DNA of 39,192 nt from a virus, in IMG/VR virus record IMGVR_UViG_3300026488_000006, positions 1 through 39,192 of that record. One strand, written 5' to 3'. This document shows, in pieces, positions 8,750 to 38,472 of the stretch. The position numbers and the translations under genes are program-made. Numbering within the stretch: position 1 is the stretch's first letter; the number at the start of each line of letters is the position of its first letter. The notes beneath the pieces are model-generated. The model worked only from the letters and a program-made list of their open reading frames with translations, searched no databases and had not been told where the DNA came from.

Positions 8750-9313
8750 TCAAAGAAAAGGTTGGCGAATGTAAAGGTAGTGGAGCTCGGCTCCTTTATG
8801 AGCCCCAGCGCCAGACTCATTGGCTCCATCCCAACCGAGAATTTGCCTCAGCTTCTCGGAGTCGCCCCAAATGCCCTCGTTCAGAGCCACAGTTCGTATC
8901 TCGGAGGCCTTCTTCAATAGCTTGTCGAACGAGATGTTGCGCTCGCAGACGTGGAGCACGATTTCGCCACCGGCGACCCTTCTGAACTCAACGACCCTCG
9001 GCTCGTTGCTTCTGTCTTGTAGTAAATACTTGCGGTACACCTTGCCATCCTTGGTGAGCTCGATGCAACACTTGTGCCCCCACTGGTATTCGTCGAGCAC
9101 GTACTCTTCAATCCTCGCGTCGTCAGTCTCGTACTGGTTCCAGAACCTTACTAAAGACTCTGCTTTTTCCCTGTCTGAGAATACGGCCAGTATGCGGTAG
9201 TCTGAATACTCGCCCGCCGTGACCACGTACACTTTCTTAGCCGGCGCTTCATTTCTGTTTAGAACTGGGGTGCCGTTCGCACCCTCCCCGACGAGAACCC
9301 GGTACCCCGGCAT
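8750..9313 (-). CDS. Hypothetical protein (187 aa)
   Basis: ATG at 9313 after GGTGATG; TATA-like TTCTTAAATATT upstream on the minus strand. Confidence 0.5.
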   Translation of the reverse strand: MPGYRVLVGEGANGTPVLNRNEAPAKKVYVVTAGEYSDYRILAVFSDREKAESLVRFWNQYETDDARIEEYVLDEYQWGHKCCIELTKDGKVYRKYLLQDRSNEPRVVEFRRVAGGEIVLHVCERNISFDKLLKKASEIRTVALNEGIWGDSEKLRQILGWDGANESGAGAHKGAELHYLYIRQPFL

Positions 9314-9392
9314 GTGACATCACCAAGTACAACCTGACGTTTGGAATATTTAAGAATTGTCACCAGAATGTAAAGGAAAAGCTTGGCAAACG

Positions 9393-9539
9393 TCAAGAAG
9401 AGGTGCCCGAGTCGAGCTCGTCAATCTTCCGCTTTACCCAAACGCTCGCCTTCCACCAGCCGTAGCTTATCAGCCCGAGCAGGAAAATGTAAAAGAGGCG
9501 CTCGGCGAGGTTGTTTTTTCGCTCCGGTTGCCCCGGCAT
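9393..9539 (-). CDS. Small putative membrane protein (48 aa)
   Basis: Not in the ORF track. RBS GAGGTGG overlaps the upstream stop; ATG at 9539; one hydrophobic helix (LFYIFLLGLISYGWW). Confidence 0.3.
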   Translation of the reverse strand: MPGQPERKNNLAERLFYIFLLGLISYGWWKASVWVKRKIDELDSGTSS

Positions 9540-9549
9540 GCTCGCCACC

Positions 9550-10803
9550 TCACTTGGAGCTTAGTGCCTTCGCCACGCTGACAGCCACGACGGCCCCAAC
9601 GCCGAGCATGATGAAGTTCGCCATCTTGTCCAGGGCTGAGCCACCGCCACCACCGCCTGAGCCACCGCTCGGCTTGGTCGCGTTGGCCACGTCGGTCACG
9701 TGCTTGAGGAGCTCCTGACAGGCGGGGTTGTTCGGGTCGCTACACGCGCTCGTCACGAAGTTGATGTACTGGCTGAAGGCCTCGGCGCGCTTCTTGTCGG
9801 CCTCGGCGTAGATTGCGTCCACCCTGACGACCTTGACCGCGAAGGCGATGGCTATGACTATCACCGCCAGCGCCACGAGGACGTAAACGACCGGCATGAG
9901 CTCCGGCCCGAGCGAGCCCGCCTTGACCACGGGCACGAGCACGGTGTAGGTGCCGTCATGGTTCTTGACGATGTACGGCCCACGGAGCTTCTGCCCGGCG
10001 TAGGTGTACTCGTAGGTCGTGTCAACAACGAACCCCAGGGGCGCCACCATCTTGGCCGTCTCCTGCACGGCCCTGGCCAGCACGTCCTCCATCTTGGGGC
10101 ACTTCTTGATGATGCCCAGCACTTTCTGGCACTCGTCCTCGACCGTCACGGCCAGCACGGCGCGGTTGGAGTTCAGCAATACGCCCGGCGGGGTCATTAG
10201 CGACGCCTGGTAAGCGACCCAGTAGTAGCCACGCGGGATTGTGACCCCGAACTTCTGCTCGAACTCCTGTATTGTCTCCTCGGGCACGCTCGCGTTGGGG
10301 AGCCTCAGCCTGGACAGCATGACGCCGTTCTGCCAGTCGGTCACCTGGTCCTTGAGCTCGCGCTCCGGAGGCTGGTTTGGCCCGGCGTACTTGAAGCCGA
10401 TGACCGTCGAGTAGTCCACGAAGAGCACTGGCACGGCGTCAATGACGTTCACGCAACCCACGTCCGGCACCGGCAACACGGGGCCATGAGCGTTGGGGCT
10501 CTTCTGACCGCACACCTCGTGGCTGAAGTACTGGTACATTGCGAGCCACAGGTTGGGGCTCGTCCAGAGCGCCACGTCCCCATTCTCGCCGTGGATGGTT
10601 TTCTTTTTCCAGCTCGGCTTGGCCTCGGGAATCTCGCCGGTCTCAACGTCGAACGGTACGTATGTGGCCCGGTAAGTGCCCTGCCACGCTCCCCGTGCGA
10701 GGAGCACCCAGAGCGCGTAGGTCAGCTTGTCCATCGGCTTTGATGGGTCAACCGGCGTCAGCCCGACCGCCTCGACGTAGCTCATCCTGTCCTTGTAGCT
10801 CAT
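9550..10803 (-). CDS. Putative membrane-anchored virion/envelope protein (417 aa)
   Basis: RBS GAGGTGA before ATG; internal hydrophobic helix; Gly-rich linker (SGGSGGGGGGS) followed by a C-terminal transmembrane anchor. Confidence 0.6.
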   Translation of the reverse strand: MSYKDRMSYVEAVGLTPVDPSKPMDKLTYALWVLLARGAWQGTYRATYVPFDVETGEIPEAKPSWKKKTIHGENGDVALWTSPNLWLAMYQYFSHEVCGQKSPNAHGPVLPVPDVGCVNVIDAVPVLFVDYSTVIGFKYAGPNQPPERELKDQVTDWQNGVMLSRLRLPNASVPEETIQEFEQKFGVTIPRGYYWVAYQASLMTPPGVLLNSNRAVLAVTVEDECQKVLGIIKKCPKMEDVLARAVQETAKMVAPLGFVVDTTYEYTYAGQKLRGPYIVKNHDGTYTVLVPVVKAGSLGPELMPVVYVLVALAVIVIAIAFAVKVVRVDAIYAEADKKRAEAFSQYINFVTSACSDPNNPACQELLKHVTDVANATKPSGGSGGGGGGSALDKMANFIMLGVGAVVAVSVAKALSSK

Positions 10804-10818
10804 CTCTCGTCACCTCGG

Positions 10819-11682
10819 TTATTCCTTGTGGGTGGCCTTCGCGAGGGCGTAGGCCGTCACCAACCCGGCTCCAAGGAGCGCGAGGCCGGCTAAACTATTT
10901 TTTTCCTCCGTCGTGTTGACCCCGGGGCCGGGCCCCGGCCCGGGCCCCTCTGCCGGCTTTATCTCGACAGTTATTGTATTCTGGTAGGCGAGCCGGTCAT
11001 CGACATAAACTTTCACGACTGCCTGTATCGTCCCCTTTGCGTTCTTTGGTATTTGGATGGGTAGGTTAAAGCGGGCTCCATAGGCGCCCTTTGTCGTCAC
11101 CGGGCCGGACTTCACGGTTCCAAACGGCGTGTCCATCTCGGCGAGGAACTTGTGGGTGTTGTAGTCATTCAGCACGCGGGCGTTCACAGTGACGGTTAGG
11201 GTTCCACCCGCCTTGACGGAGCTCGGCGCATTTATGCTCACGTCAACCTTTGGTAGCTGGTACTCGCCTGCCTTGACCTTTGCGCTGGCTATTAGTGTCC
11301 CGCTCGGCACGTCGGCAGGGCTGGCGAAAGCAACGATGGTAACGCCTTCCTCCGGCATCGTTATGTAGCCAACGGTCGCGATTTGGCACTTGTTTAGCTT
11401 AACGGCGCCGAGCTTTGTCCCCTTCTTGTTGCTCGCCGTGATGTAAGCATCCGGCCCTGTCCCCTTAGCGTACCAAACCTCAATGGTCACCGGGAAACTC
11501 TTCCAAATGGCCCAGTCCGGCACGCCGACGATAACCGGCACCTTCTGCCCCGGAGGTGCCGAGGCTGGCACATTGAGTATCTCTTCGGGGCACGGCTGGG
11601 GGGTCGGTTCGGGGCCGGCCTGGCTAACGTTCACCCCAAAGGACTTGGTATCAACAACGTGCCACTCCGCCATCTCCATCAC
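10819..11682 (-). CDS. Putative surface protein (about 285 aa) with C-terminal TM anchor
   Basis: N-terminus MAEWHVVDTKSFGVNV is paralogous to the N-terminus of 12185..12496; PGPGPGPG linker then hydrophobic anchor. True start is probably the third ATG (about 11673). Confidence 0.6.
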   Translation of the reverse strand: MMEMAEWHVVDTKSFGVNVSQAGPEPTPQPCPEEILNVPASAPPGQKVPVIVGVPDWAIWKSFPVTIEVWYAKGTGPDAYITASNKKGTKLGAVKLNKCQIATVGYITMPEEGVTIVAFASPADVPSGTLIASAKVKAGEYQLPKVDVSINAPSSVKAGGTLTVTVNARVLNDYNTHKFLAEMDTPFGTVKSGPVTTKGAYGARFNLPIQIPKNAKGTIQAVVKVYVDDRLAYQNTITVEIKPAEGPGPGPGPGVNTTEEKNSLAGLALLGAGLVTAYALAKATHKE

Positions 11683-11686
11683 CCCC

Positions 11687-12136
11687 TCAACTAAGCAATA
11701 ACAACATGGCGCCGGCGATTAGCCACCAGGGAACGTTCCCTTCCTCCTGAGCTTCCGCCTGGGCCGTTGCCCCCTGTTTGGCGGTGGGCCCGAGGATGGT
11801 CACCGCGAACGTCGCCGTGCCGAGTAGGCGCCCGTACTTGTCCCTTACTTCGAGGGTAAACGTTCTCTTACCGCCCGGGACTGTTCCCTTACACGCAATT
11901 GGATACCCTGTCACCGTGCGTCCGGGAACGACCGTGCACCCCGGCACTTGGACTGCTAAACGGACGATGGTTGGTGGCTGGAGGTCCCTTATCGGGCCCG
12001 CGCGCCACTCGTAGCCCATGCCCTTCAACACGAGGACTGCGTCGAAGGGTACGGGCGCGCCCTTAATCTTGACCCAAACTGTCATGACTTCGCCCGGCCT
12101 ATAAATCTGCTTCTCGGGTATGGCTTCAACTTCCAC
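11687..12136 (-). CDS. Putative membrane-anchored protein (149 aa)
   Basis: RBS AAGGAGGTGAT before GTG start; C-terminal hydrophobic anchor (VPWWLIAGAMLLLLS). Confidence 0.55.
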   Translation of the reverse strand: MEVEAIPEKQIYRPGEVMTVWVKIKGAPVPFDAVLVLKGMGYEWRAGPIRDLQPPTIVRLAVQVPGCTVVPGRTVTGYPIACKGTVPGGKRTFTLEVRDKYGRLLGTATFAVTILGPTAKQGATAQAEAQEEGNVPWWLIAGAMLLLLS

Positions 12137-12184
12137 AGAGCATCACCTCCTTGCGTGCCGGGGTGCACGGCTCCGCACCCCGGC

Positions 12185-12496
12185 TCAGTAGTAGGCGCTC
12201 AGCGTCACGGTTCCGGTGTAGTACCCCGGCTTGGACGGTGCCGTAAGGTCGAAAGTCAGCTCGACTTTTTGCCCGGCCCTGTATGCTGTCCCGTTCTGTG
12301 AGTATGTCTTGCCGAAGATGTTTATGGTGGCGCTGACTGGCACCGGCCTGTCGGTCGGTATCGCCCACACCGTCACCGTAAACTTCTCCCCGGCGCGCAC
12401 TTCCTTCGGGACGCTTACACCCCATTTTATGTTTGGCGCGGGCATCTGGACGTTCACCCCGAAAGTTTTTTGCCCAACAACGTGCCACGTTGCCAT
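12185..12496 (-). CDS. Hypothetical beta-rich protein (103 aa), paralog of the N-terminal domain of 10819..11682
   Basis: RBS AAGGAGGTGGTG before ATG; shared N-terminal motif MATWHVVGQKTFGVNV. Confidence 0.55.
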   Translation of the reverse strand: MATWHVVGQKTFGVNVQMPAPNIKWGVSVPKEVRAGEKFTVTVWAIPTDRPVPVSATINIFGKTYSQNGTAYRAGQKVELTFDLTAPSKPGYYTGTVTLSAYY

Positions 12497-12538
12497 TCCA
12501 CACCACCTCCTTCCTTTTTGTCGTTATGATTTTAACCC

Positions 12539-12850: not shown

Positions 12851-12864
12851 CCCATCACCCCCCG

Positions 12865-13519: not shown

Positions 13520-13525
13520 ACCGCA

Positions 13526-13996: not shown

Positions 13997-14008
13997 GTTA
14001 TCACCTCC

Positions 14009-16835: not shown

Positions 16836-16838
16836 ACT

Positions 16839-17563: not shown

Positions 17564-17574
17564 TGCTCATCACC

Positions 17575-18159: not shown

Positions 18160-18163
18160 AGTA

Positions 18164-18727: not shown

Positions 18728-18731
18728 CCCC

Positions 18732-19046: not shown

Positions 19047-19049
19047 TCA

Positions 19050-21442: not shown

Positions 21443-21649
21443 CTCAACACCACCTCCAGTGGTTCTTTTTGTTGCCGGGTTTCGGCCCCCGGTAGGGCTC
21501 CCGGTCTCGTTCTCTGTGTATGTTTTTTGCAAAAGAGATATTTATGTCTTTCGCTCCGCAAAACCCGCCCTTTGCAGAAAGCAATGTTTCGCATGTGGTT
21601 GGTCAACGGTTGAGTTTACAAATGTAAAAGAAAAGGTTGCGTGGCACAG

Positions 21650-22174: not shown

Positions 22175-22184
22175 AAGCACCACC

Positions 22185-22721: not shown

Positions 22722-25700
22722 TCACCTCAGCTCCTTCCTCAACTCCGCAACGAACTTTTCATATATCTCGTTGAACGGCCAGGGGAATTCTGGCTCGTAG
22801 CCAAGACTCTTCAGCACCGTCGCGGGCACCACTGCGACCAAGTAGAACATCGTGGGCTCGCAAAGCCAGCCCTTCTCGTTCTCTCCGAGCTCGTCCTCAA
22901 ACTTGACCTGCACCGTGAAGTGGTTGTAGTCCGCCTTGTGGCAAATCTTTCTGTGCTTTCTGAGGAAAGCCAGCACGGCAGTACTGTAAGGCTCGCCCGC
23001 CTTAGCATTCCTCTTCAGCCATGCACGTATGAGGCTCGCAACCTTCCTATATACCTCGTGGATGCCACCCTCGACCAGAGCACCGCCCGCCTGCTCCACA
23101 GCGTATAGCGCCATCGCTTCGGCGAACGTCAGCGGGGCCCTCTTCTTCCTGTCTATGTACTCGCCGATGATGTTCTCCCCGAGCCACTTCTTGAGAAAGT
23201 CGGCATACATGCTGGCGTCCGAGTGAGTCTTGGCCTTCTCCTTAAGGTAGCGCTCAACGCCATACCACAGCATAGCTGAGAGCTCGCGCGGGTCTTCGAG
23301 GGCCCGACTGAGCCACTCCGGCACCTCGCCGAGGTACTGGTAGATGTTCTTTGGCTTCGATAGTTCTTTCCTCCGCTCGACTATCTCAGTTGCTGAAACC
23401 ACCCCACCCGAGCGCTTCTTCATCTCGACCGGGAGCTCTCGGCGCCCGACCTTTTGGTTGTACACACTTGTGGCCAACTTCGAGGCTTCGATGACGGCGC
23501 TGTCGAACGGGAGCTCGCCCTTGGCCACCATATCCGCGAGAACCCATAGGTCGCGCTCGATGTCGGGGAGCACGAAGTCGAGGTCAATGTTGCGCTTGAG
23601 TAGTCTGCGGTCGAGGCTCTTGAGTAGGCGCTCATAGGTGGCTCTAACTTCCTCTGGCACTTCCGGTGCTCTTCTTGGCTCAATCTCTTCGCTTATGGCC
23701 TCTTCTTCCGGCGTCAACTCCTTCACCTCCCTTTCGGCCCTGCGCTCGGGTTTTGCACCCAGCATTTTCTTCGCTTCCTCGACCTTCGCCTTCGGCAACG
23801 CCTTCCGCGCCTCCTTCATCACGATGGCCATCGCCCTCGGCTGGGTGAGCCTGCCTTCATAGACCTCGCGGGCGAGGCGCTCGATGAGCTCAAGCGGGGG
23901 CTCCGGCGGTCTGACATCGTGGAGCTCGAAGTAGCCTTCCCAGGTGTCGGTCAGCTTGCGCCTGATGAAGCGGAGGTCTTCCTCCTCCTGCGTCGCCATC
24001 TCGGCGACTTCTTCGAGCGGGAGCTCCGTCGCCTCGCCGTGCACCTTGACCGGGACCTCAACCTCCTCAAGCGGGGCCCCCTCTTTCTCCCCGGCAATAG
24101 TTCTCACCATGGACTCCTCCGGGATTTCGGCCTTCTGCTTCTCCTCCAGCTCGGCCTCAAGCTCCGGTAGCTCTTCCGGTGCCGGCGGTAAGTATTCCTT
24201 CGCCAGCTCGCGGACGTGGCGTGCCCATTCTTCCGGCGTCATCCCGAGGCGCCTGGCGAACTCTTCATCATTGGCCAACTGCTCGACCACTTCCTCGGCG
24301 CTGGTGGCACCGTACTGCTCCGGGTGCTCAAGGGCGTCGCGGATGTAGTCGTCAACCTGCCTCAGCAACTCGGCCCGCTCTTCCGTCTCAGTTGGCTTGA
24401 GCTTCCACCTCATAACCTCGGCTCCAGCCCTCGCGAGGAGCGCCTCCTCCTTGTTGGTCGGGAGCGTCCGGGCGTAGTGGACGAGCATATCATAGACCGT
24501 ACGGAACGGGTAGTAGTCGAGCTTCTGCCAGTCATAGTCTTCGACCTCGCTCGGGCTGATTGCGCCGAGGAGGACGAGCGTCTTGGCCACGCGCTCCGGC
24601 GTCGGCTTTAGGCCGAGGTAAAAGCCGAGCTGGGCGCGCTCTATTGAGGGCTTCGGCTTCTCCTCGCGGGCGGGCTTAGGCTCTGGCTGTGCGGACTTGG
24701 CAGTCCCCGGGACTTCTCTCGGCTTTTCCACCTTCTTCTTGCATTTTTCCACCTGTGGTGCCAGGAAGCGCTCAAAGTACGTAGTCACCAGCTCCTGTAA
24801 GTAGTTGGCTTTGACAAAGTTTAGGTGGCCGGGCTTGAGCTCGCGACGGACGACGTTGTAATACCCGCGGGCGTTGTCTGAGATGTGGCACACGCCGTTG
24901 GGGTAGTGTTTCTCGGGGTACAAAAACTCCTCACGGACGCCGAACTCGCGCTCAAGGTGGCGGGCGAAAACGTCCCTCGGAGCTGTCTTGGCGAACTCCT
25001 CGACTTGCTTCGTGAGCTCCGGCGTCACGTAGCGGACGTTGTAGTTTGGCTCATAAGACTCCGATTGTTTTGCTAATGCCTCAAGCTCAGCCTTTACTCT
25101 GTTGAGCGTCTCCCGCACGTCTTCCATCTGCTCCTTGAGCTCCTCGTCGCTCACGCGCGGGTTGCCTATCATCCTCCCAAGCACGCGCACCTTCACCTTT
25201 AGCGAGTTCTTAATGGTCGTGCTTAGCTTCCAAGGGAGCTTTTCCGGCAGGTTCTTGCGGAGCTCTTCGTATTCCTTGATTAGCTTCCTGGCCTCTTCCT
25301 CAAGCGCAAGGCGCTTTTCCGCCTCGGTGCCGGCCTTTGACTTAACGCCCAGCCCGCTCGTCAGGTAGCCGACGTATTTGCAGAAGTCCGGCATATTGGC
25401 GTCCTTCCACGTGAAGTTGGAGAGGTACTGGGCGAGGTAGAGTATCTCGCGGTCGAGCGGGTTGGCGCCGTGCCACTTGGGGATTTTTCCACGCTTTATG
25501 TCGGCACAGGCCATATCGAGCGGTATGAGCACGGCTTTGACCGGCTCGACCTTCCCGGCGTTGTAAAGCTTCCACGCCATAGCCGTGAGCGCCATGAGCT
25601 CCCTAAGCTTCTTCAGGCAGTCGTAGGGGCTCCTGCTGTCCCTACACAACTTATCGTAGTCGGTCCTCAATAGGATGAGCTTTCCGCCCGACAGGCACCA

Positions 25701-27761
25701 CCCAAGCTTTTTGCGCTCTATGAACTCACATATCTCGTCCGCCGAGACCTCCGCACCCATCCTGGCCAGCCTGCTCACCAGCCCCGGTAGCGTGTCCCAG
25801 ATTGAGAAGACCGTTGGGCTCTTGTTTAGCTTCTCGTCAATTATCTTCATTAATTCCTCGCGCCAGTCCACCTTTTTCGGACTCAGCCTCTCCAGAACTT
25901 CCTTTGTGAGCTCACGGGCGAGTGAGTGGACGCAGGGAACGTACTTACGCGGGTCTTTTCCACGACCAACCTCACAAACCCCGTCGAGCTCGATGGTCTC
26001 GCCGTTCACCCTTGCGCTCAACGTGATGTAGGCGCCGTGTAACTGCCCCAACCTCATCGTCAGCTCGAAGTCGCCCACCGCCGTCTTGACGAGCCACGTT
26101 TTTTCAGCCTGCGTGTCGCTGTTCCATTCCTTGACTGCCTTCCAGTCCAACGGGGGCTTCCCGGTCTCGTGGAGCACTACCTCGTACACCCCGTCGTAAA
26201 GCGCCTTCCGAGCATTCTTCCATACCTCGTTCCAGGGCTCCTTGAGCTCCGGCGGGTTAAGGCGGACTTCGCCGAACTTCTTTGAGAGGCCGGGAACGTT
26301 CATAGTGCGCTCGATGATTTCGAGGGCGTCGGCGATGGCGTTATCAGTCAGCTTCCTTACCCACGCCTTCCGCTTCGGCGACCAGCGGAACCCGTGCGCC
26401 TTGAGCTCGCGCCTAACCTCTGCCGGCGGGGCGCTCGTAAAGACCACCCAGAGCCTATCGTCGGCGTGGTTAGCAATGATTTTCCAGCCGTCACCCTTGG
26501 CCAACACCTGAACACCGCTTGTCGTGCCCTTGGCCTGCGCTTCTTTTTTCTCTAACTCCTCAATACGGGCCTTGAGGCGCTTTATTTTTTCACCAACACG
26601 GCGGAGCTCAAAGTCGGGGAAACCAATCCTGCCCAGCTCGTCCGGCTCCGGCCAAAAGAAGAAGTGGCCGGCCTCTGCAACTTTAAATGCGCCAATCTCT
26701 TTAAGCTTCCTCTCCTTCTCTTCGGGCGTGAGCTTCTTTGAGCGGATGATTTTGTTCGCTTCCTTCATTATCTCACGGCGCTTTTCGAGTATCGCCAACT
26801 CTTCCTTTAACCTCTCCAGTTCGCCAACGGCCTTTTTGTTCACGGCGCCCTGCTTCAGAGCTTCCTGCTCCTTCTTCAGCTCCTCTGCCAATTTATCAAG
26901 CTTCTTAAAGGCGTTCTTGATGAACTCGTCGAGCGCTGACAGCTTCCTATGTTCAGTCCGCCAGAGCTTTTCGAGCCGGTCTTGGCTCGGCATCCTCGCC
27001 GGCCCAACCACGTGGGCGCTCGGAATTCTCGCCCTCGTCGTTAAGTAGTCCTCATAAAGCTCAATGTAGCGCTTCGAAAAGTTTTGTATCAACCTCTTCG
27101 CCCGTTCGGGGCCGATGAGCGGGCAGAGCTTCTGCACCTTCTCAGCGTAGCGGTTCAGAGTGCGGAGGTAAGAGAGCTGGTCATACTCCGCGTCTTTCTC
27201 CGGGGTCCACGAATTAATAGAATACGCGCCCTTCGCCCGCTCAAACGGGAACGGTGTAACTTTGACGGGGATTATATCAGCCTTCCCGCCATAGTAACAC
27301 TCGATTTCAAGCGTCCAATTGTCCTGAATAAACGGGCCCCGTTCCCGCTTCGCCCTAACAACTGTCAAGATTTTATCAACGGGGCGCTCAAGCTCTTCTA
27401 CAAGAGAGTTCAATTGCGGGAGCTCGGATTTAAGCCTCTCAATAGCACCCTTGAGCTTCTCAACGTCTTCTGGTGTGAATTTATAGCGCCCAATGTCGGC
27501 CTCTCTCATTAAGTCGCGGTAGCGGTCAATGAGCTTATTCACGGCCACCCAGTCCCTCCACAGCCTCAAGAACTCCTCAACGCGCTCTTTCATCCCGGGC
27601 GGGAACTCCTCGCCGGCCTGTCTAATCTCATCTATATGTTCCTTGAGCCATAGGGCGCGGACGTAGTTCTTCATATCCTTTGTTCCCGAGAACCACCCGT
27701 TTTCGGCCCGGATGTCGTTAAACTCCCAGATGAGCTTTTGGACTTCATCGTACAGGTTCAC
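22722..27761 (-). CDS. Giant multidomain protein (1,679 aa) of unknown function
   Basis: Uninterrupted 5 kb ORF; GTG start at 27761 after RBS GGGGGTGGTGGC; coiled-coil-like and highly acidic/basic segments; no Walker A, no polymerase or primase motif that I could confirm. Confidence 0.7.
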   Translation of the reverse strand: MNLYDEVQKLIWEFNDIRAENGWFSGTKDMKNYVRALWLKEHIDEIRQAGEEFPPGMKERVEEFLRLWRDWVAVNKLIDRYRDLMREADIGRYKFTPEDVEKLKGAIERLKSELPQLNSLVEELERPVDKILTVVRAKRERGPFIQDNWTLEIECYYGGKADIIPVKVTPFPFERAKGAYSINSWTPEKDAEYDQLSYLRTLNRYAEKVQKLCPLIGPERAKRLIQNFSKRYIELYEDYLTTRARIPSAHVVGPARMPSQDRLEKLWRTEHRKLSALDEFIKNAFKKLDKLAEELKKEQEALKQGAVNKKAVGELERLKEELAILEKRREIMKEANKIIRSKKLTPEEKERKLKEIGAFKVAEAGHFFFWPEPDELGRIGFPDFELRRVGEKIKRLKARIEELEKKEAQAKGTTSGVQVLAKGDGWKIIANHADDRLWVVFTSAPPAEVRRELKAHGFRWSPKRKAWVRKLTDNAIADALEIIERTMNVPGLSKKFGEVRLNPPELKEPWNEVWKNARKALYDGVYEVVLHETGKPPLDWKAVKEWNSDTQAEKTWLVKTAVGDFELTMRLGQLHGAYITLSARVNGETIELDGVCEVGRGKDPRKYVPCVHSLARELTKEVLERLSPKKVDWREELMKIIDEKLNKSPTVFSIWDTLPGLVSRLARMGAEVSADEICEFIERKKLGWCLSGGKLILLRTDYDKLCRDSRSPYDCLKKLRELMALTAMAWKLYNAGKVEPVKAVLIPLDMACADIKRGKIPKWHGANPLDREILYLAQYLSNFTWKDANMPDFCKYVGYLTSGLGVKSKAGTEAEKRLALEEEARKLIKEYEELRKNLPEKLPWKLSTTIKNSLKVKVRVLGRMIGNPRVSDEELKEQMEDVRETLNRVKAELEALAKQSESYEPNYNVRYVTPELTKQVEEFAKTAPRDVFARHLEREFGVREEFLYPEKHYPNGVCHISDNARGYYNVVRRELKPGHLNFVKANYLQELVTTYFERFLAPQVEKCKKKVEKPREVPGTAKSAQPEPKPAREEKPKPSIERAQLGFYLGLKPTPERVAKTLVLLGAISPSEVEDYDWQKLDYYPFRTVYDMLVHYARTLPTNKEEALLARAGAEVMRWKLKPTETEERAELLRQVDDYIRDALEHPEQYGATSAEEVVEQLANDEEFARRLGMTPEEWARHVRELAKEYLPPAPEELPELEAELEEKQKAEIPEESMVRTIAGEKEGAPLEEVEVPVKVHGEATELPLEEVAEMATQEEEDLRFIRRKLTDTWEGYFELHDVRPPEPPLELIERLAREVYEGRLTQPRAMAIVMKEARKALPKAKVEEAKKMLGAKPERRAEREVKELTPEEEAISEEIEPRRAPEVPEEVRATYERLLKSLDRRLLKRNIDLDFVLPDIERDLWVLADMVAKGELPFDSAVIEASKLATSVYNQKVGRRELPVEMKKRSGGVVSATEIVERRKELSKPKNIYQYLGEVPEWLSRALEDPRELSAMLWYGVERYLKEKAKTHSDASMYADFLKKWLGENIIGEYIDRKKRAPLTFAEAMALYAVEQAGGALVEGGIHEVYRKVASLIRAWLKRNAKAGEPYSTAVLAFLRKHRKICHKADYNHFTVQVKFEDELGENEKGWLCEPTMFYLVAVVPATVLKSLGYEPEFPWPFNEIYEKFVAELRKELR

Positions 27762-27877: not shown

Positions 27878-28189
27878 GTGGTGATTAGCGTGCCGTCCCA
27901 CCGCTACCACAAAGCCCTTAACCGGCTCGTGCTCGGCGACGACTGCGAGCCCGTGAACCTCATCAAGGACGCACCCTACCGGCTCTTTCCCGGCAAAAAG
28001 CACCGGCAGTACTTCCACGACCGGGCCACGAACTTCTGGCTCGGCATTCTCCTTGGGCCGAAGGCCTTCCTTGCCGGTGAGCTCCACGACTGGCTGGATA
28101 GGGAGTTCATCGAGGACAGGGAAACGGGCCGGCTCGTCCCGCGAGAAAAGTGGATAACTAAGAGGCGCCGGCGAAAGAAGAGGCGTTAG
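27878..28189 (+). CDS. Hypothetical protein (103 aa) with strongly basic C-terminus (KRRRRKKRR)
   Basis: GTG start just downstream of the TATA-like box; stop overlaps the stop of the convergent gene (TTAG). Confidence 0.5.
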   Translation: MVISVPSHRYHKALNRLVLGDDCEPVNLIKDAPYRLFPGKKHRQYFHDRATNFWLGILLGPKAFLAGELHDWLDREFIEDRETGRLVPREKWITKRRRRKKRR

Positions 28190-28428
28190 CCTTCCTTTTT
28201 CCGGGGCCGGATGATGGCCACGCGCCCCGGCAGGAGGAAAACCTCCAGCTCCTCGCCCGGCTCGTAGAAGCCGAACGGGATAAATACTGCGATGCCCCTG
28301 TCGTTGAACTTCGACGCCTTCCGGATGAGCCTCACACCCTCTTTGTCCTTGATTTTGACCTGCCGAGCGAGCTTCGGCTTCGGTCCTTTCACGATTACCT
28401 TGTCCTGACGAACCTCGACCTCCGTCAT
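28186..28428 (-). CDS. Small basic hypothetical protein (80 aa), possible DNA-binding protein
   Basis: Track ORF 28186..28632; ATG at 28428 after RBS GGGGTGGTGGGA; the longer track ORF runs into promoter DNA. Confidence 0.5.
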   Translation of the reverse strand: MTEVEVRQDKVIVKGPKPKLARQVKIKDKEGVRLIRKASKFNDRGIAVFIPFGFYEPGEELEVFLLPGRVAIIRPRKKEG

Positions 28429-28527
28429 TCCCACCACCCCGATGATGTTTTGTTTAAACGAGTATATAAAGGATTCCCCGGCCGAGCTCGGGAGCGAGCC
28501 GGAGCGATTACTACTGCCCGACGTGCC

Positions 28528-28563
28528 GTTGCAAAAAAGTTGTAAAAACGGCAGATTTTTAAG
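28528..28563 (+). promoter_or_regulatory. Conserved early-promoter element (GTTGCAAAAAAGTTGTAAAAACGGCAG plus TATA-like ATTTTTAAGG)
   Basis: 24 of 27 nt identical to 29887-29913; same distance (57-58 nt) from motif end to the start codon. Confidence 0.5.
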
Positions 28564-28611
28564 GTCTAAACTGCTAATATATTTTGAAGAACGCAAAGGT
28601 GGTGGTGAAAA

Positions 28612-29687: not shown

Positions 29688-29688
29688 A

Positions 29689-29747
29689 CCTTCTTTTTTT
29701 CGCCCGCTTTATAACCCGGTTATAATTTCTCACAACCGGGTTTTGCC
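29689..29747 (+). terminator. Terminator-like element: oligo-T plus palindrome TTATAACCCGGTTATAA and AACCGGGTTTTGCC
   Basis: T9 run immediately after the operon's last stop; about 80 percent identical to 30326-30382. Confidence 0.45.
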
Positions 29748-29886
29748 TGGGGGGCTACATATATACTACATATAATTCCACGCCCCAAGTTTCACCACGA
29801 TAACTTAGTTTTAGCAGTTGATAACTCGGTTATGTCGCGTGAGTTTCTGACGCGACTCCGAGGCGCTCTCAGACGCGAGAACTTTG

Positions 29887-29932
29887 TTGCAAAAAAGTTT
29901 CAAAAACGGAAGGTTTATATATGTGTTTAAAC
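29887..29932 (+). promoter_or_regulatory. Conserved early-promoter element, second copy (GTTGCAAAAAAGTTTCAAAAACGGAAG plus TATA-like GTTTATATATG and GTTTAAAC)
   Basis: See 28528-28563. Confidence 0.5.
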
Positions 29933-29969
29933 ATAAGAGAGAACGAAGAATGTGATAGAGGTGGTCGTG

Positions 29970-30323: not shown

Positions 30324-30325
30324 CC

Positions 30326-30382
30326 CTTCTTTTTTCGCCCGCCTTATAACTCGGTTATAGCTTTTCTTAACTCGGTTTTGCC
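30326..30382 (+). terminator. Terminator-like element, second copy: oligo-T plus palindrome TTATAACTCGGTTATAG and AACTCGGTTTTGCC
   Basis: Immediately after the stop of 29970..30323; homologous to 29689-29747. Confidence 0.45.
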
Positions 30383-30512
30383 AAGGAAGGACACGTAACC
30401 CTCACCCCCAACTCTATGTTTAAACTCCCGCAACCCCGACCTTTACAGATGCAAAACCTTAAATACCCCTTTTGCAAAAATCTTATACGAACAACGTCAA
30501 GGGGGTGGCACT

Positions 30513-31598
30513 GTGGACGACGAGGAAAAGCGCGAGAAGGCCGGGGAAAACCGCCCCGACGACTTCAGCGAGCTCGACGACCTTTTAGAAGCCCTTATGG
30601 GCGCCGAGGAGGTGGCAGAAGACAGCCAAAGCGAGGAACCACCCGACGACGCCAAAGAACCACCCGCCGAACCCAAACACAGAAAGTACGCCCCAAACCC
30701 GTACAGCAAAATCAAAGACATCCCCGAAGACTTCCTCACGTTCCTCCTTGAGACGGACGCGAAGTGGGCAAAGCGCAAGCTGTGGCGCGGAATCATCAGA
30801 AGCATCTACGAGAACCCGCGCGCGCACTCGACAGACATTGCCAAGCTCCTCGACACGACGCCCTCCACCGTCATGCGCACCGCCGAGCGATATAGGGCTA
30901 TGTGGAACGAGCTTCGCGAGGACTACGAGGAGTGGAAGCGGAAGCTTGAGGAAGGCGTCCCGGGCGAGTTAGAGTCGAAGCTCCCACCAACCAAAGCCCC
31001 TTCCCCACAGCCGGCCCCGGAGCCGGCGCCGAAGAAGCGTGGGGGCTCGAAGAGCTCTACGGGTGGCGAGAAAGAAGAAAAAATCCCGCAGAAGCTCTAC
31101 GAGTTCACCAAGAGCACGACGACCTTCAAAGAGATTGATAAGACGCTTAGCGAAGTGCTCGGTGCTCAGTTCCACGATACGGCGGTTAGAAAGGAAGTTT
31201 ACGCCCGGCTCGGCGAACTGCTGATTTTCAGCCTCCTCCAGCTCGGTGTGGTCGAGCGTGATAAAATAGTCGCCTACTCTGAACAGCTCTCGACCGACCC
31301 GGACAGGCTCTACGAGTACGTCAAAAACCAGCTCGACGCCGTTCTCCGCTTAACCGACGCCGAGACGCTCCAGCGCGTCTGGGTCGAGCTAACCGCGCTC
31401 AGGCGCCAGGTCAGGGCACTCGAAGCGACCGCCGACATGCTCAGCGACACGCTAAAAGAGTACGAGGACGCCATCCGGTTCCTCATGGGTCTTCTCACGC
31501 GCGACCAGCTCGAAAAGTTCTCCGCGTATGTGTTTATGAAGGAGTTTATGAAGCAGTACGCGCCCCTGCAGGGCGCCGTTCCTGGAGGTGGTAGATGA
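30513..31598 (+). CDS. Hypothetical protein (361 aa) with acidic N-terminus and a helix-turn-helix-like segment; possible transcription regulator
   Basis: RBS GGGGGTGG before GTG; segment RAHSTDIAKLLDTTPSTVMRTAERYRAMWNE resembles an HTH; C-terminal codons form the next gene's RBS. Confidence 0.55.
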   Translation: MDDEEKREKAGENRPDDFSELDDLLEALMGAEEVAEDSQSEEPPDDAKEPPAEPKHRKYAPNPYSKIKDIPEDFLTFLLETDAKWAKRKLWRGIIRSIYENPRAHSTDIAKLLDTTPSTVMRTAERYRAMWNELREDYEEWKRKLEEGVPGELESKLPPTKAPSPQPAPEPAPKKRGGSKSSTGGEKEEKIPQKLYEFTKSTTTFKEIDKTLSEVLGAQFHDTAVRKEVYARLGELLIFSLLQLGVVERDKIVAYSEQLSTDPDRLYEYVKNQLDAVLRLTDAETLQRVWVELTALRRQVRALEATADMLSDTLKEYEDAIRFLMGLLTRDQLEKFSAYVFMKEFMKQYAPLQGAVPGGGR

Positions 31599-34767: not shown

Positions 34768-34771
34768 GCCT

Positions 34772-34939
34772 ATGGCGAGGCGCGACACCACCGCAATCCT
34801 CAAACGGCTAAAAAAGCGCCTCGACCGGGCGAGAAAAGCCCTCCTCGTTGAGGACAGCGCCACGGCGCTGGAGCACGTGGATTGGGCAATCCTTGAGCTC
34901 GAAGAGCTCGCCGAAGAAAGTGCGGAGGTGGGAGAGTGA
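34772..34939 (+). CDS. Small hypothetical protein (about 55 aa)
   Basis: Track ORF 34754..34939; ATG at 34772 after RBS GGGGGTGAG. Confidence 0.45.
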   Translation: MARRDTTAILKRLKKRLDRARKALLVEDSATALEHVDWAILELEELAEESAEVGE

Positions 34940-35295
34940 TACCGCCGAGCTGGGCCTACGGGATAAGTACGGGAAGCCTGCTAACGATGCTACTCGGCGT
35001 CCTCCTCGGGGCGACGCTCGGGACCATCATCGGCACCGAGATTGCTTACCGGCGCACCGAGCGGTGGCTACGAAAGCTCCTAACAGACAAAGAGTTTCAG
35101 AACCTCGCCGTCGGCTGGCTCAAGCGGACGGCTCAGCAGTTCGAGAACGAGTACGTGAAACCGAAAATCGAAAGCGAGGAGTTCCGCGAGCTCGTCAGGA
35201 AGGCGAAAGAACAGGCAATGCAGGCGCTCCTCGGGCCGGGCGAGCCCCCAACCGACGTGCCGAGCCTTGATGACTTCGTAGGGGGTGAGGGGTGA
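34936..35295 (+). CDS. Membrane protein (119 aa) with N-terminal TM helix
   Basis: RBS GGAGGTGGGAGA before GTG; hydrophobic N-terminus LLTMLLGVLLGATLGTIIG. Confidence 0.55.
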   Translation: MIPPSWAYGISTGSLLTMLLGVLLGATLGTIIGTEIAYRRTERWLRKLLTDKEFQNLAVGWLKRTAQQFENEYVKPKIESEEFRELVRKAKEQAMQALLGPGEPPTDVPSLDDFVGGEG

Positions 35296-35507
35296 TGGAC
35301 GTTGCCTTGTTAGCCGAGGTGTTGACGGCCATCCTGGCCGTCGTGAGCTTCCTCCTTGGAGCGAAGTGGAGGAAGGCAAAAGCCGTGCTCCGCGACCTCG
35401 CGAAGGCCCTCGAAGACACGTACCAAGCCCTCGAAGACGACAAGCTGACAAAGGAAGAGCTCAAGCAGTTGATAAAAGACTGGAAAAAAGTGCTGGAGAA
35501 CGTTTAG
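35295..35507 (+). CDS. Small membrane protein (about 70 aa), TM helix plus coiled coil
   Basis: ATG at 35295 after RBS GGGGGTGAGGGGTG; last gene of the plus operon. Confidence 0.5.
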   Translation: MDVALLAEVLTAILAVVSFLLGAKWRKAKAVLRDLAKALEDTYQALEDDKLTKEELKQLIKDWKKVLENV

Positions 35508-35788
35508 GCCCAGCCCCCGCCGTTTGGGCCGGGCCACTCCGGGCGGAGCCGTACTGGCTCCACCGCCCCTCTTTTTAGGAGCACGCCCCAGACGCCAGGG
35601 GGCATAGCGTTGGCCGTCACGAGGTCGCCCTTTCTGAACGGCCCGCGCGGGCCGTCCGGCGTCATAATGCCTTCTGGAAAGTCCATGAGGAACCGGTAGG
35701 CCCACTGCGGGGCCGGGCGCTCAGTTCTCGCCGTCCTGGCCTTCGGCCTCGCCTTCACCCAGCCGAGGAGGCTCGCCTGTGCCACCAC
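35504..35788 (-). CDS. Hypothetical protein (94 aa), last gene of the origin-spanning minus operon
   Basis: GTG start just after the upstream stop; its stop overlaps the stop of the convergent plus-strand gene. Confidence 0.45.
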   Translation of the reverse strand: MVAQASLLGWVKARPKARTARTERPAPQWAYRFLMDFPEGIMTPDGPRGPFRKGDLVTANAMPPGVWGVLLKRGAVEPVRLRPEWPGPNGGGWA

Positions 35789-35791
35789 CCA

Positions 35792-35956
35792 TCACCCCCT
35801 CTCTCCGCTCTGCTCGCCGGGCGTGAAAAGAACGAAAGGCCGAAAGTCGGGCGCCGGGAAGGTGATTACTGCCCCGCAGTGCGGGCAGTGAACCGGGCGG
35901 TGGATGTCCTCGACCTCGAAGGGCTGTCCGCAGTAAGGACAACGGACGCGCATCAT
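35792..35956 (-). CDS. Zinc-ribbon protein (about 54 aa)
   Basis: Track ORF 35792..36001; ATG at 35956 after RBS GGAGGGGGT; two CxxC pairs (CPYCG ... CPHCG). Confidence 0.5.
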   Translation of the reverse strand: MMRVRCPYCGQPFEVEDIHRPVHCPHCGAVITFPAPDFRPFVLFTPGEQSGERG

Positions 35957-36249
35957 TTTGCCGACCCCCTCCACCTCATCATCCTCCGTAGCTTTCTCCA
36001 AACAGGGATTGTTTCTCTACTCATATAGTTTCTTTTAGCGAGCCACTCTTTGAACTTCTCGTCACACTCCTCGTCTTCATCAAGGAAGTCGAGTAGTTGA
36101 AGGACTTCCTTATATCTGCCGTACTTCCGCCACACGGCCCACAAGACTTGAGCTCCGAGCCATACCATGAATGCCACAAGCGCCCACGCAAGCGCCGTTA
36201 GCACGGCGAAGCCGGTGTAGGTCCAGATAGTTTCAATGCTCACGGCCAT
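35953..36249 (-). CDS. Small membrane protein (about 98 aa)
   Basis: Track ORF 35953..36324; ATG at 36249 inside a 19-bp sequence also found at the dpdA-like start; hydrophobic helices. Confidence 0.5.
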   Translation of the reverse strand: MAVSIETIWTYTGFAVLTALAWALVAFMVWLGAQVLWAVWRKYGRYKEVLQLLDFLDEDEECDEKFKEWLAKRNYMSRETIPVWRKLRRMMRWRGSAK

Positions 36250-36320
36250 CACGCTCCTTTTTTCTTTCAGAGTGCACATAGTGGAACCACCATATGTAAT
36301 ACTCCTCCGTGATTCCCATT

Positions 36321-37130
36321 TCACACATTCGAAATCACCTCAGTAAGGCTTTTCTGACGGGAGTTTTGGAACCCATCTAATAACCGAACCCAATGGAGTA
36401 CTCTCTGTCGTATCTGCATCCAGATAGGCTTAGAGTTCTTCACGCGGTCAATACCATACCTATATGCCAAACTGTCCGCCGAGTAAAGAGCTTCTCTCAC
36501 GTCAGGATACCTGAGCACTCCAAACTTTACTCCAAAAGCGTGCAACTTAACCCTCCTTGGTGTCGCTTCTCTTATTGCGAGTATGTATCTCCGTATTTGC
36601 GGTTCTTGCCCGCGCCGGCACATTGTGCCGAGGCCGAGAAGTTCAGTCAGGAGACCATGCTCCTTCATATAATCGAGCATCCAGAGATAGTCGTCAAGCG
36701 CCCACCCCTGCAATACTGCCACAAAGTGCTTCTTAAGTTCAGGATACTGGTCGTCAATTAGATTCTGAATTACAATCTGGTTTTCTATCGTTTTCATCTG
36801 ATTTTCTCGAACCGTGCGACCCCACTTCTTGCGGACTTCCGGTTCGCACGGATAATCCCTATTCGCAAAGAGGACATTCTCAAAGCGTCCAGAATTGAGC
36901 TGACGAAGGACAAACTCAAGGTAGCGCTCGTGTGGGTCCGGGTATTCTTGCATGCGGTAAAAAAAGCTGAAGCCTCCGCTGTCAATGAACAACCAGCTTG
37001 TGTTCCTAGGTGGGGTTCTAACTCTGGAAGCATAGTTAATCATAACATTGAACTTGCGCGGAGCGAGGCTTTCAAATGCCTTTTTTGCTGAACCATCCCC
37101 CACACCAAAAAAGAAACTAAACACGGCCAT
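36321..37130 (-). CDS. TGT-family transglycosylase, DpdA-like (7-deazaguanine DNA transglycosylase candidate)
   Basis: Motif WLFIDSGGFSFF matches the tRNA-guanine transglycosylase active-site motif (E. coli Tgt ILTDSGGFQVF); downstream blocks align loosely with TGT (VAVLQG, LLGLGTM, YSADSL); no CxCxxC...H zinc site. Track ORF 36321..37271 starts at a TTG; ATG at 37130 follows RBS AGGAAGGAGCGTG. Confidence 0.7.
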   Translation of the reverse strand: MAVFSFFFGVGDGSAKKAFESLAPRKFNVMINYASRVRTPPRNTSWLFIDSGGFSFFYRMQEYPDPHERYLEFVLRQLNSGRFENVLFANRDYPCEPEVRKKWGRTVRENQMKTIENQIVIQNLIDDQYPELKKHFVAVLQGWALDDYLWMLDYMKEHGLLTELLGLGTMCRRGQEPQIRRYILAIREATPRRVKLHAFGVKFGVLRYPDVREALYSADSLAYRYGIDRVKNSKPIWMQIRQRVLHWVRLLDGFQNSRQKSLTEVISNV

Positions 37131-37296
37131 CACGCTCCTTCCTAAGTGTTGCAATAAAGCACTCGTCGAAAAACTCACAAGCTTCACAGAGCGAGTCGCC
37201 CTGAAAGTCTCCAAAGCAAGGCGGTAGTTCCTCAGCGCCCTCATTGTCGAATTCGCCCCAAACCTCTCCAAAAACCGTTATGAGAACCTTAGCCAC
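37117..37296 (-). CDS. Small Cys-rich protein (59 aa), possible metal-binding
   Basis: Not in the ORF track. GTG start after RBS GGGGGTGACGGGGC, directly after the upstream stop; C-x11-C-x2-C-x5-C; overlaps the dpdA-like start by 14 nt in another frame. Confidence 0.35.
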   Translation of the reverse strand: MAKVLITVFGEVWGEFDNEGAEELPPCFGDFQGDSLCEACEFFDECFIATLRKERDGRV

Positions 37297-37310
37297 GCCC
37301 CGTCACCCCC

Positions 37311-37547
37311 TTAAACTTCCACCTCGGCCTTTCGGCCGGCGGGCTCGCCGAGGCGGACGACGGCGTAGCCATGCTTTGCAAGGGCCTTAATGATTTTGAG
37401 AGCCTCGGCGTCGTCGCTGAGTACGGCGAGCAAGATGTCCTTGCCGTCCGGCAGGCGCCCGTGGAGCTCGCCACAGCAGTACTCGACGTGATGGAGCTCG
37501 TAAACGCCGTAGGTGTTGTCGAGGCCGTCAATCACGGCGACCCTCAT
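37311..37547 (-). CDS. Hypothetical protein (78 aa) with HHVEYCCGELHG motif
   Basis: ORF tiled in operon next to the dpdA-like gene. Confidence 0.5.
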   Translation of the reverse strand: MRVAVIDGLDNTYGVYELHHVEYCCGELHGRLPDGKDILLAVLSDDAEALKIIKALAKHGYAVVRLGEPAGRKAEVEV

Positions 37548-37577
37548 GCTTCCACCTCCAAAAATTTAAGAAAGGGT

Positions 37578-37880
37578 CTAATCGGCCTCATTCTCTTGGA
37601 AGTATCTTCTCGTGTCATCATCGAAGAGGCTGATATCTTCTTCCTTATAGAAAAACATTGCTAAAGCTCTGGACTTTAGGAGGTTGTTGAGGTCGTCCTT
37701 TCCAAAAACATTCCTTGATACGGCAAAACTTGTCTTATAGTATCCTTTCTTTTTAGATGGTGCGCTCCAGTCACCAACAGGGTCCTCTGCAATTACTACG
37801 TACTTAAAACCGGCCTCCTTGTGCTTCTGGAGGTAGTCTATAACCTCATCAATAGTTGCAATCATTGTCGCCATTCTCAT
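37578..37880 (-). CDS. Hypothetical protein (100 aa), AT-richer gene
   Basis: ORF with noticeably lower GC than the genome average. Confidence 0.5.
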   Translation of the reverse strand: MRMATMIATIDEVIDYLQKHKEAGFKYVVIAEDPVGDWSAPSKKKGYYKTSFAVSRNVFGKDDLNNLLKSRALAMFFYKEEDISLFDDDTRRYFQENEAD

Positions 37881-37891
37881 ACACCCCCGAC

Positions 37892-38395
37892 TTATCCTTC
37901 AACCATTATCCAACGCTCCCGGCGGGCGTACTGCGGGAGCATGACGCGAACCCACCACTCGACGAAGGCCCAAGGCACGTGGTAGCCCTTTCCCGGGACG
38001 TAGAAGTCGCGGGGCTCGTAGCCGTTGCGGTAGCACCACCACTTAAAGTCGTTGCGGAGCGTGTATTCGCCGACGACGTGACGGTAGCGCCTCATCAGCT
38101 CGCTGAGCTTCACGCGCCGGCCCTCGCAGAGCGCATACTCGGTCACGAGGTCAAAGTGCCTATCTGGCTCAGTCGGCGTCCGCTCGTCAACCAGCATCTC
38201 CTCGTAGCGCACCTTTGCCCAGAAGTGGTTCTTGAGCCAGTGCTTTTCGAGGGCGTCAATGTAGTGGTAGGCCGTGTGCACCTGGTAGCCTCTGACGAGC
38301 CACAGGTAGGCAAAGTAGGGGCCGGCCCGGACGAGCCAGCCGTGGCGGAGGGTTAGTCGCTTAAACTTACCCATAGACACCACCCTGCGAGCCAC
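37892..38395 (-). CDS. Trp/Tyr-rich hypothetical protein (about 160 aa)
   Basis: RBS GGAGGTGG upstream; true start probably the ATG of MGKFKRL. Confidence 0.5.
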   Translation of the reverse strand: MARRVVSMGKFKRLTLRHGWLVRAGPYFAYLWLVRGYQVHTAYHYIDALEKHWLKNHFWAKVRYEEMLVDERTPTEPDRHFDLVTEYALCEGRRVKLSELMRRYRHVVGEYTLRNDFKWWCYRNGYEPRDFYVPGKGYHVPWAFVEWWVRVMLPQYARRERWIMVEG

Positions 38396-38472
38396 CTCCT
38401 TCGGTAGAACTTATGTTTAAACTTATTAAAAGCTTTGCGGTTGGGGAATGCAAAGGTAGGATTTTGCAAAAG

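Follow-up and report, generated by a model that had tools for sequence, protein, structure and literature searches.

The 39,192-nt window considered here (IMG/VR record IMGVR_UViG_3300026488_000006, positions 1 to 39,192) carries a short motif, GAATGYAAAGGWA, which recurs close to the predicted promoters of three minus-strand genes. We find that this motif is part of a genuine promoter-associated cis-element in a novel genetic element, and that the cis-element is broader than first described: it comprises a family of boxes with the likely half-site TTTRCA (TGYAAA on the plus strand) and the variant TTGAC. Judging by their arrangement in the DNA, the three copies are probably recognition boxes for one sequence-specific transcription regulator. 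The ends of the window are identical over 127 nt (1-127 = 39066-39192); hence, the molecule is a complete circular genome of 39,065 bp. Its predicted promoters look archaeal, with 8-bp TATA boxes preceded by purine-rich elements (GCGAAAG, GyAA) that resemble the transcription factor B recognition element (BRE), the two together lying ~25-35 nt upstream of GGAGGTG-type ribosome sites. There are weak protein matches to PriL and to archaeal-virus proteins, and the composition of the proteome (IVYWREL index 0.434; charged-minus-polar difference 11.3%) is one that, going by the published indices, we take to be that of a thermophile. The element is most likely an uncultivated, thermophile-type, circular 39-kb virus or plasmid of the archaeal type.

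The three copies of the motif are found on the plus strand where the original prediction had placed them, starting at 8767, 9366 and 38446 (GAATGTAAAGGTA, 8767-8779; GAATGTAAAGGAA, 9366-9378; GAATGCAAAGGTA, 38446-38458), and all read CCTTTRCATTC in the minus, that is the transcribed, orientation. Its further claim, that each copy lies upstream of a TATA-like box of a minus-strand gene, also holds (Table 1). The fixed pattern has three matches in the window against 0.13 expected, a figure that overstates the evidence since the pattern was picked after the data had been seen. Dinucleotide shuffles of the genome contain ~105 13-mer centres with at least three sites at one mismatch or fewer, and recurrence alone is therefore no evidence. 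The real signal lies instead in three other properties: the placement of the copies by TATA boxes, the presence of a partner box at a constant 22 bp and the over-representation of the core word outside coding sequence.

With respect to placement, the three copies lie 21-43 bp upstream of a BRE/TATA-type promoter of a minus-strand gene, in one orientation throughout. At the three sites, termed S1, S2 and S3, the box proximal to the promoter starts 21, 21 and 23 bp upstream of the start of the sequence-predicted TATA box, and the partner box is situated 22 bp further upstream. A TTGAC-type partner is found exactly 22 bp from each copy, on the promoter side at S1 and on the distal side at S2 and S3. 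The S1 distal box and the S3 proximal box, both of which hold a motif copy, are identical at 19 of 21 positions. A fourth related site, S4, has a spacer (AAAGAAAAGGTTG) identical to those of S1 and S2 at 17 of 19 positions, an inverted repeat in its upstream cluster and the word TTTTGCAAAAAA 3 nt downstream of its TATA box. Three plus-strand promoters, B1, B2 and B3, also carry boxes: those of B1 are 85% identical to those of B2, while the B3 promoter shares 71% identity over 55 nt with the S4 core promoter. Direct repeats have a 22-bp period at S1, S2, S3, S4 and B3; at B1 and B2 the period is 11 bp. More generally, in six promoters of one class (class A) drawn from three elements, neither the AA of the BRE nor the TTA.A of the TATA box varies, and all six carry TTKAC or TTGCA, the distance to CTTAWA being similar.

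The statistics of the box family point in the same direction. Same-strand pairs of the words TTGAC, TTTAC or TTTGC at exactly 22 bp number six, against 0.45 expected, and none of 300 shuffles reaches six pairs at any spacing from 5 to 45 bp; five of the six pairs lie in promoter regions, namely those of S1, S2, S3, S4 and B3 (30478-30500). When k-mers were counted without prior bias in non-coding sequence from both the window and L007, a distant relative described below, TTTGCAA, TTTTGCA and TTTGCA ranked directly after the ribosome-binding words. In the same two sequences the non-coding 6.3 kb contain 27 copies of TTTRCA, which on the other strand is the TGYAAA at the centre of the motif, and the coding 56 kb contain 21 (11.5-fold enrichment, p = 3e-15); by our own estimate the difference in AT content (49-51% non-coding, 41% coding) explains just ~2.6-fold of this. 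TTTGCAA itself has 13 non-coding and four coding occurrences. Within the window, 17 of the 31 core words fall in the seven promoter regions S1-S4 and B1-B3. Three copies of the perfect palindrome TTTTGCAAAA are present where 0.02 would be expected, each of them in a promoter region: at S4 and B3 it follows the TATA box at a distance of 3-5 nt, and at S3 it forms part of the distal box. The arrangement TTTRCA-NN-TGYAAA occurs twice, at S4 and B3, against 0.12 expected. The boxes thus recur at several promoters, are rare elsewhere in the genome and keep a reproducible short distance from the BRE/TATA. They are missing from the promoter of the replication operon, which carries a GTTAAAC-type motif of its own, and from a few other promoters. 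A looser definition of the unit, TTKRC-N-TT, was discarded on account of the many coding TTGGC sites that it matched.

Table 1. Positions of boxes, core promoters and candidate regulator genes in the window. Transcription units and genes given as driven by a promoter are predictions.
Feature	Position	Strand	Sequence and remarks
S1 distal box	8761-8780	-	CTACCTTTACATTCGCCAAC; holds first motif copy; inside 3' end of the 187-aa DUF7336 gene
S1 proximal box	8740-8754	-	TTTGACTTTGTGGTG / TTTGACTTTG
S1 BRE/TATA	8725-8739	-	GCAATCC-TTATAAGC; predicted to drive operon from 109-aa gene to methylase
S2 proximal box	9361-9376	-	CCTTTACATTCTGGTG; second motif copy
S2 distal box	9382-9396	-	TTGACGTTTGCCAAG / TTGACGTTTGCC
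S2 BRE/TATA	9346-9360	-	ACAATTC-TTAAATAT; predicted to drive the 187-aa DUF7336 gene
S3 proximal box	38440-38459	-	CTACCTTTGCATTCCCCAAC; third motif copy
S3 distal box	38462-38476	-	TTGACTTTTGCAAAA; includes palindrome TTTTGCAAAA
S3 BRE/TATA	38422-38438	-	GCAAAGC-TTTTAATAAG; predicted to drive 160-aa gene and following genes including DpdA homologue
S4 upstream cluster	21602-21630	-	CTTTTACATTTGTAAACTCAACCGTTGAC; inverted repeat TTTACA-NN-TGTAAA and TTTAC/TTGAC pair at 22-bp spacing
S4 core promoter	21523-21577	-	TGCAAAGG at 21569-21577; BRE/TATA GCGAAAGACATAAATAT at 21538-21554; TTTTGCAAAAAA at 21523-21534
B1 boxes	28526-28551	+	CCGTTGCAAAAAAGTTGTAAAAACGG; between divergent TATA boxes 28462-28472 (-) and 28554-28564 (+)
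B2 boxes and BRE/TATA	29886-29923	+	GTTGCAAAAAAGTTTCAAAAACGG (boxes, 29886-29909), then BRE/TATA GGTTTATATATG
B3 promoter	30440-30502	+	inverted repeat TTTACAGATGCAAA, TATA CTTAAATAC, palindrome TTTTGCAAAA at 30470-30479, GTCAA; upstream of 361-aa gene
Candidate regulator 1 (361-aa protein)	30513-31598	+	directly behind B3; sub-threshold AsnC/Lrp-type helix-turn-helix at residues 92-122
Candidate regulator 2 (orphan 80-aa all-beta protein)	28186-28428	-	divergent from B1 operon

Several features of the surroundings of these sites may be recorded alongside. The TGA stop codons of three upstream genes fall within the TTGAC boxes: at 8750-8752 in S1 (the 187-aa gene, the last ten codons of which are encoded by the S1 boxes), at 9393-9395 in S2 (a 48-aa open reading frame) and at 38473-38475 in S3 (a 241-aa gene, which spans the junction of the circle). 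The non-palindromic single boxes at S1, S2, S3, B1 and B2 (8770, 9369, 28530, 28541, 29888 and 38449) all present TGYAAA on the plus strand, whichever the direction of the gene, and all six 22-bp pairs are on the minus strand; this shared bias could be due to chance (~1 in 16 to 1 in 32) or to a strand-related constraint. A 21-codon open reading frame (MKYRAGLCYSFMRGVSYEGQS; 8626-8691, minus strand) begins ~32 nt past the TATA box of S1 and overlaps with the beginning of the 109-aa gene; it has an in-frame 3-nt insertion in two strain variants (L002, L003). In the 5' leader behind the S4 promoter there is a GC-rich hairpin-like segment (GACCGGG...CCCGG; 21465-21505, minus strand), which is kept in L007 at 2235-2275.

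The evolutionary evidence comes from one distant relative and a set of strain variants. The relative, IMG/VR uncultivated virus genome 3300005095_000458 (L007/L013), is the only distant one with a long sequence, preserves the gene order at 55-72% protein identity and is the sole one to cover the regions used for the comparison of orthologous promoters. The genes behind S4 and S1 have orthologues behind matching promoters in L007. At the S4 orthologue TGCAAAGG, the BRE/TATA and TTTTGCAAAAAA are all kept, a promoter pattern that recurs in L007 only. At S1 the proximal box TTTGACTTTG corresponds to the conserved TTTTACGTTTT / TTTTACGTTTTGGTG of the orthologous promoter, and over the stretch that runs from this box across the TATA box as far as the Shine-Dalgarno sequence identity is ~74%, falling to ~33% beyond the box on the upstream side; the 13-mer itself is not conserved because it sits in this upstream part. 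Conservation of related boxes at the orthologous promoters of this relative, with proteins 55-60% identical, is thus partial. Among the strain variants, L001-L006 are 100% identical at the S1 and S2 promoters and hence provide no footprint there. At B1 the boxes are unchanged while the adjacent GC-rich spacer has ~14 substitutions. At S3 the promoter does not vary as far as the ribosome site, beyond which another gene cassette sets in: in L019, L020 and L022 (2085-2500, corresponding to 37892-38400 of the window) genes of 108 and 162 aa replace the 160-aa gene. As the cassettes differ behind an identical promoter, the promoter modules lie at mosaic boundaries. Three further variants, L014-L016, differ in the early plus-strand operon.

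The original prediction had taken the motif for an upstream activating or operator sequence. This agrees with the position relative to the BRE/TATA, the phasing, the enrichment, the invariance among strain variants and the conservation of related boxes, from all of which a function in regulation is read. It needs recasting insofar as the 13-mer is merely a fragment of a two-box element and represents a sub-class of the TTTRCA/TTGAC family, which also serves plus-strand promoters. While positions, phasing, enrichment and partial evolutionary conservation were computed directly, we infer from them the binding of a protein, the sign of its regulation and its identity. A dimeric or oligomeric DNA-binding protein would be the simplest account of direct, inverted and overlapping half-sites phased by whole helical turns. 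At S1-S3 the two boxes would be displayed on the same face of the helix just upstream of the BRE/TATA; an oligomer bound there could help recruit the TATA-binding protein (TBP) or transcription factor B (TFB) and thereby activate transcription, or else nucleate spreading along the DNA. The upstream pairs at S1-S3, B1 and B2 would accordingly occupy the position used by archaeal activators or nucleating repressors. At S4 and B3, where the palindrome TTTTGCAAAA comes after the TATA box and ahead of the start site, it would be in the usual position of an archaeal repressor, blocking the recruitment of polymerase. In this manner a single protein could turn the majority of the element's transcription units on or off.

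The preferred candidate for this protein is the 361-aa protein encoded directly behind B3, which could thereby form an autoregulatory loop; a host factor is equally possible. Its helix-turn-helix (HTH) region has a sub-threshold match to the Pfam family HTH_24 (E = 0.001, 19 bits, cut-off 21.9), its low-confidence helical model has non-significant fold matches, mostly to HTH domains including those of AsnC/Lrp proteins, and a search of PDB sequences returned no match. The second candidate, the 80-aa protein, appears AbrB-like by eye; its assignment to AbrB/MazE is not supported (Pfam MazE/AbrB-type E = 0.31; predicted local distance difference test score of the model 60). It has no significant fold or PDB match and no homologues beyond strain variants among 1.8 billion representatives.

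Several observations weigh against a single regulator reading these boxes. L007, the only distant relative, has not kept the exact 13-mer; different sequence takes the place of the S1 distal box, no promoters correspond to S2 and S3, and boxes paired at 22 bp are lacking. The half-site is itself short and degenerate, and none of the proteins scanned proved to be a convincing DNA-binding regulator. Further, the arrangements vary (direct at 22 bp, direct at 11 bp, inverted with N2, overlapping palindrome), which may point to several factors, and the likeness of S1 to S2 and of S1 to S3 may stem in part from duplication.

This last point can be extended to a general alternative, in which the sites are paralogous promoter cassettes, spread by duplication or recombination of whole modules, with only the BRE/TATA being functional and the upstream likeness a relic or a stretch of homology for cassette exchange. 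S1 and S2 indeed align without gaps over ~60 nt including the BRE/TATA, the 19/21 identity of the S1 distal and S3 proximal boxes exceeds in length a typical protein site, the B2 and S3 cores as well as the B3 and S4 cores are homologous, and strain variants swap genes directly after the unchanged S3 promoter. However, TTTAC and TTGAC trade places between S1 and S2 with the register kept, enrichment of the core word extends to both orientations and to either side of the TATA box, and at orthologous promoters the boxes have survived a divergence to 55-60% protein identity while the sequence further upstream has been randomised. We consider this reading unlikely.

Alternatively, the sites might mark where the upstream transcription unit ends, whether as an oligo-T terminator of the archaeal kind (CCAAsCTTTTCyTTT between the boxes) or as 'stoperator'-like roadblocks formed by a protein, and would then not regulate the promoter downstream. 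The T4-C-T3/4 tracts between the two boxes at S1, S2 and S4, the location of the upstream stop codons inside the TTGAC boxes of S1, S2 and S3 and the single orientation of S1-S4 relative to transcription would be compatible with this. Stoperators of mycobacteriophage L5 and its kin are, like the present sites, asymmetric, ~13 bp long, located in short intergenic gaps and in one orientation relative to transcription; they differ in numbering dozens per genome and in acting on elongation in a bacterial host, whereas here three copies (~7 box clusters) lie beside promoters. Moreover, the clear terminator-like tracts found at other places in this genome, T6-T7 at 29695 and 30330, are longer, the T tract of S1 precedes the stop codon, B1, B2 and B3 have boxes at sites where no gene of the same direction ends, and folding predicts no RNA structure (z-scores -1.0 to +0.5). 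We therefore hold a role in termination to be decidedly improbable. A role of the boxes at the RNA level in general was rejected in view of the same z-scores and the lack of Rfam matches.

It is very improbable that the host is a bacterium and that the boxes are TTGACA-like -35 hexamers of sigma-70 promoters, with the 'TATA boxes' as their -10 elements. A promoter scan does yield TTGACG-18-TACATT and TTTACA-18-AATATT at S2, and one can read TTGACT-16-TATAAG at S1 and TTGACA-19-TATAAC at the L007 promoter. Yet the required spacing is lacking at S3, S4 and B1-B3, and over 19 kb neither sigma-70-like promoters (4 against 5.1 expected) nor hairpin terminators (23 against 21.3) are enriched. As a general promoter type sigma-70 was accordingly rejected: it fits S1 and S2 only. 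The purine-rich BRE-like element abutting an 8-bp TATA box, with an AA that is invariant in six promoters while the '-35' position is not, and the weak matches to PriL and archaeal-virus proteins speak against it as well.

Hardly any probability attaches to chance recurrence of an A-rich 13-mer, which the shuffled genomes would permit, or to membership of the replication origin system through the word AAAGGTAGGA common to the iteron region: placement, orientation, the 22-bp partners and the core enrichment are unexpected by chance, and the origin copies lack the TGYA part of the motif, although the related word AAAGGTAG is found five times in non-coding DNA and never in coding DNA. The original prediction was accurate in noting AAAGGTAGGAG twice in the iteron region (3824-3834 and 3963-3973). 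The two copies count as one occurrence, as they make up the opening 11 nt of a single 74-nt repeat that is present in duplicate (88% identity), and the proposed link to the iterons, which rests on this overlap of 10-11 nt, falls away. The motif as an iteron was likewise rejected: its copies are scattered over the genome (8.7, 9.4 and 38.4 kb), only AAAGGTAGGA, at the start of the duplicated unit, is common to it and the origin, and the iterons proper are GAAGACA-type words. The origin-like region with these iterons spans 3740-4235 and includes the 74-nt direct repeat (3824-3897 / 3963-4036), a 51-nt inverted repeat (3863-3913 / 4155-4205, 96%) and further repeats of 19-21 nt. The promoter of the replication operon (3550-3630, minus strand; genes of 57, 197 and 317 aa plus the helicase) has two or more GTTAAAC-N5-TGTTTGC boxes, which are conserved in three diverged elements, the window, L007 (18395-18470) and L008 (6790-6900). 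These constitute a separate candidate operator, unrelated to the 13-mer motif.

The reading of the boxes as sites of one regulator can be set against known systems, which they resemble in layout; by sequence or by an identified protein they are a member of none. Arrays of boxes at several promoters of one archaeal virus, bound by one small regulator, are known for F55, SvtR and AvtR (PMC5569661). In the fusellovirus SSV1, F55 serves as a global switch by way of direct-repeat boxes at the promoters of several units of a circular virus (PMC5569661), and direct repeats in the promoters of several units are what we find here too. They differ in that the F55 sites are adjacent ATAGATAG repeats overlapping the BRE and the start site and bound by a ribbon-helix-helix (RHH) protein, whereas the present element uses a TTTRCA/TTGAC half-site with repeats 22 bp apart and mostly upstream of the BRE. 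None of the 44 proteins scanned matched an RHH family, and the box sequence is unrelated to the ATAGATAG consensus. SvtR of SIRV1 and AvtR of AFV6 likewise have high-affinity sites upstream of the BRE/TATA at several viral promoters; both proteins oligomerise along DNA, and AvtR activates or represses (PMC5569661). Their consensus is different, they have RHH folds, and their binding is experimental while that to the present boxes is inferred.

The boxes of Ss-LrpB, in which TTGCA-type half-sites form the regularly spaced arrays in control regions that archaeal HTH regulators use, have the consensus TTGCAAAATTTGCAA, which shares the words TTGCAAAA and TTTGCAA with the present family (PMC1802622); the weak AsnC-type HTH match in the 361-aa protein is a further likeness. 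Lrp/AsnC boxes are semi-palindromic, 13-15 bp long and have an AT-rich centre; palindromic forms and regular spacing exist here as well, yet the three originally flagged copies are asymmetric. In the 361-aa protein the HTH_24 match is sub-threshold, the RAM/AsnC_trans_reg ligand-binding domain is absent and the fold matches are non-significant, and we treat the resemblance to Ss-LrpB as a lead, not as membership. The position of S1-S3 is also comparable to that of archaeal upstream activating sequences, such as those of Ptr2, TFB-RF1 and HhpR, where activators bound just upstream of the BRE/TATA recruit TBP or TFB (PMC11705074). Those belong to host regulons and have unrelated sequences, and activation in the present case is a proposal. 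Beyond these, a full-text search for TTTGCAAA in archaeal papers gave no title or abstract on such a regulatory motif, and IMG/VR contains 37 single matches to the extended motif ACCTTTRCATTCNCCAAC, which fall without exception in unrelated contigs and never in a comparable promoter-like context; we treat these as chance.

As for the element itself, it is a metagenomic contig (ENA ERZ27262635 k141_279034), near-identical variants of which occur in several other samples. Apart from L007, the fragments L008, L010 and L012 are related to it; scans of metagenomes and IMG/VR yielded just L012 and the already known L007 contig. Searches of phage and plasmid collections by megablast and tblastn found no relatives of the element, the sole protein matches being distant ones between the N-terminal domain of the 1679-aa protein and bacterial plasmid or phage proteins. 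The GTDB genomes scanned with the 417-aa protein and with the helicase gave zero matches. Recognisable genes of the element encode a UvrD-like helicase, an N6/N4 methylase, a DpdA homologue (36321-37271), which suggests 7-deazaguanine modification of the DNA, and the 1679-aa protein with a primase-like domain (22722-27761), the N-terminal domain of which resembles primase or ArdC-like domains of conjugative plasmids and phages. A further palindrome, ATAACyCGGTTAT, occurs three times (29711-29723, 29821-29833 and 30346-30358; 0.06 expected), in two cases immediately behind terminator-like T6-T7 tracts (CCTTCTTTTTT(T)CGCCCGC) where plus-strand genes end.

Almost nothing is known of gene control in uncultivated archaeal viruses and plasmids of hot environments. 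Shared operator or activator boxes are an established principle in mobile elements, to which the present case adds an example and not a new concept. A bolder version, which we regard as quite unlikely, would have the 361-aa HTH protein read the TTTRCA/TTGAC boxes at nearly every promoter, acting by '-35-like' recruitment at a fixed distance of 21 bp upstream of the TATA box at one class of promoters and as a repressor at TATA-proximal palindromes at another. If true, this would amount to a lambda-like global switch built on an upstream core-promoter element of a kind not described for archaea. If the boxes are real sites of a regulator, they would define a compact regulon of about seven promoters, and may serve as probes for finding that regulator and for sorting the genes of the element into co-regulated groups.

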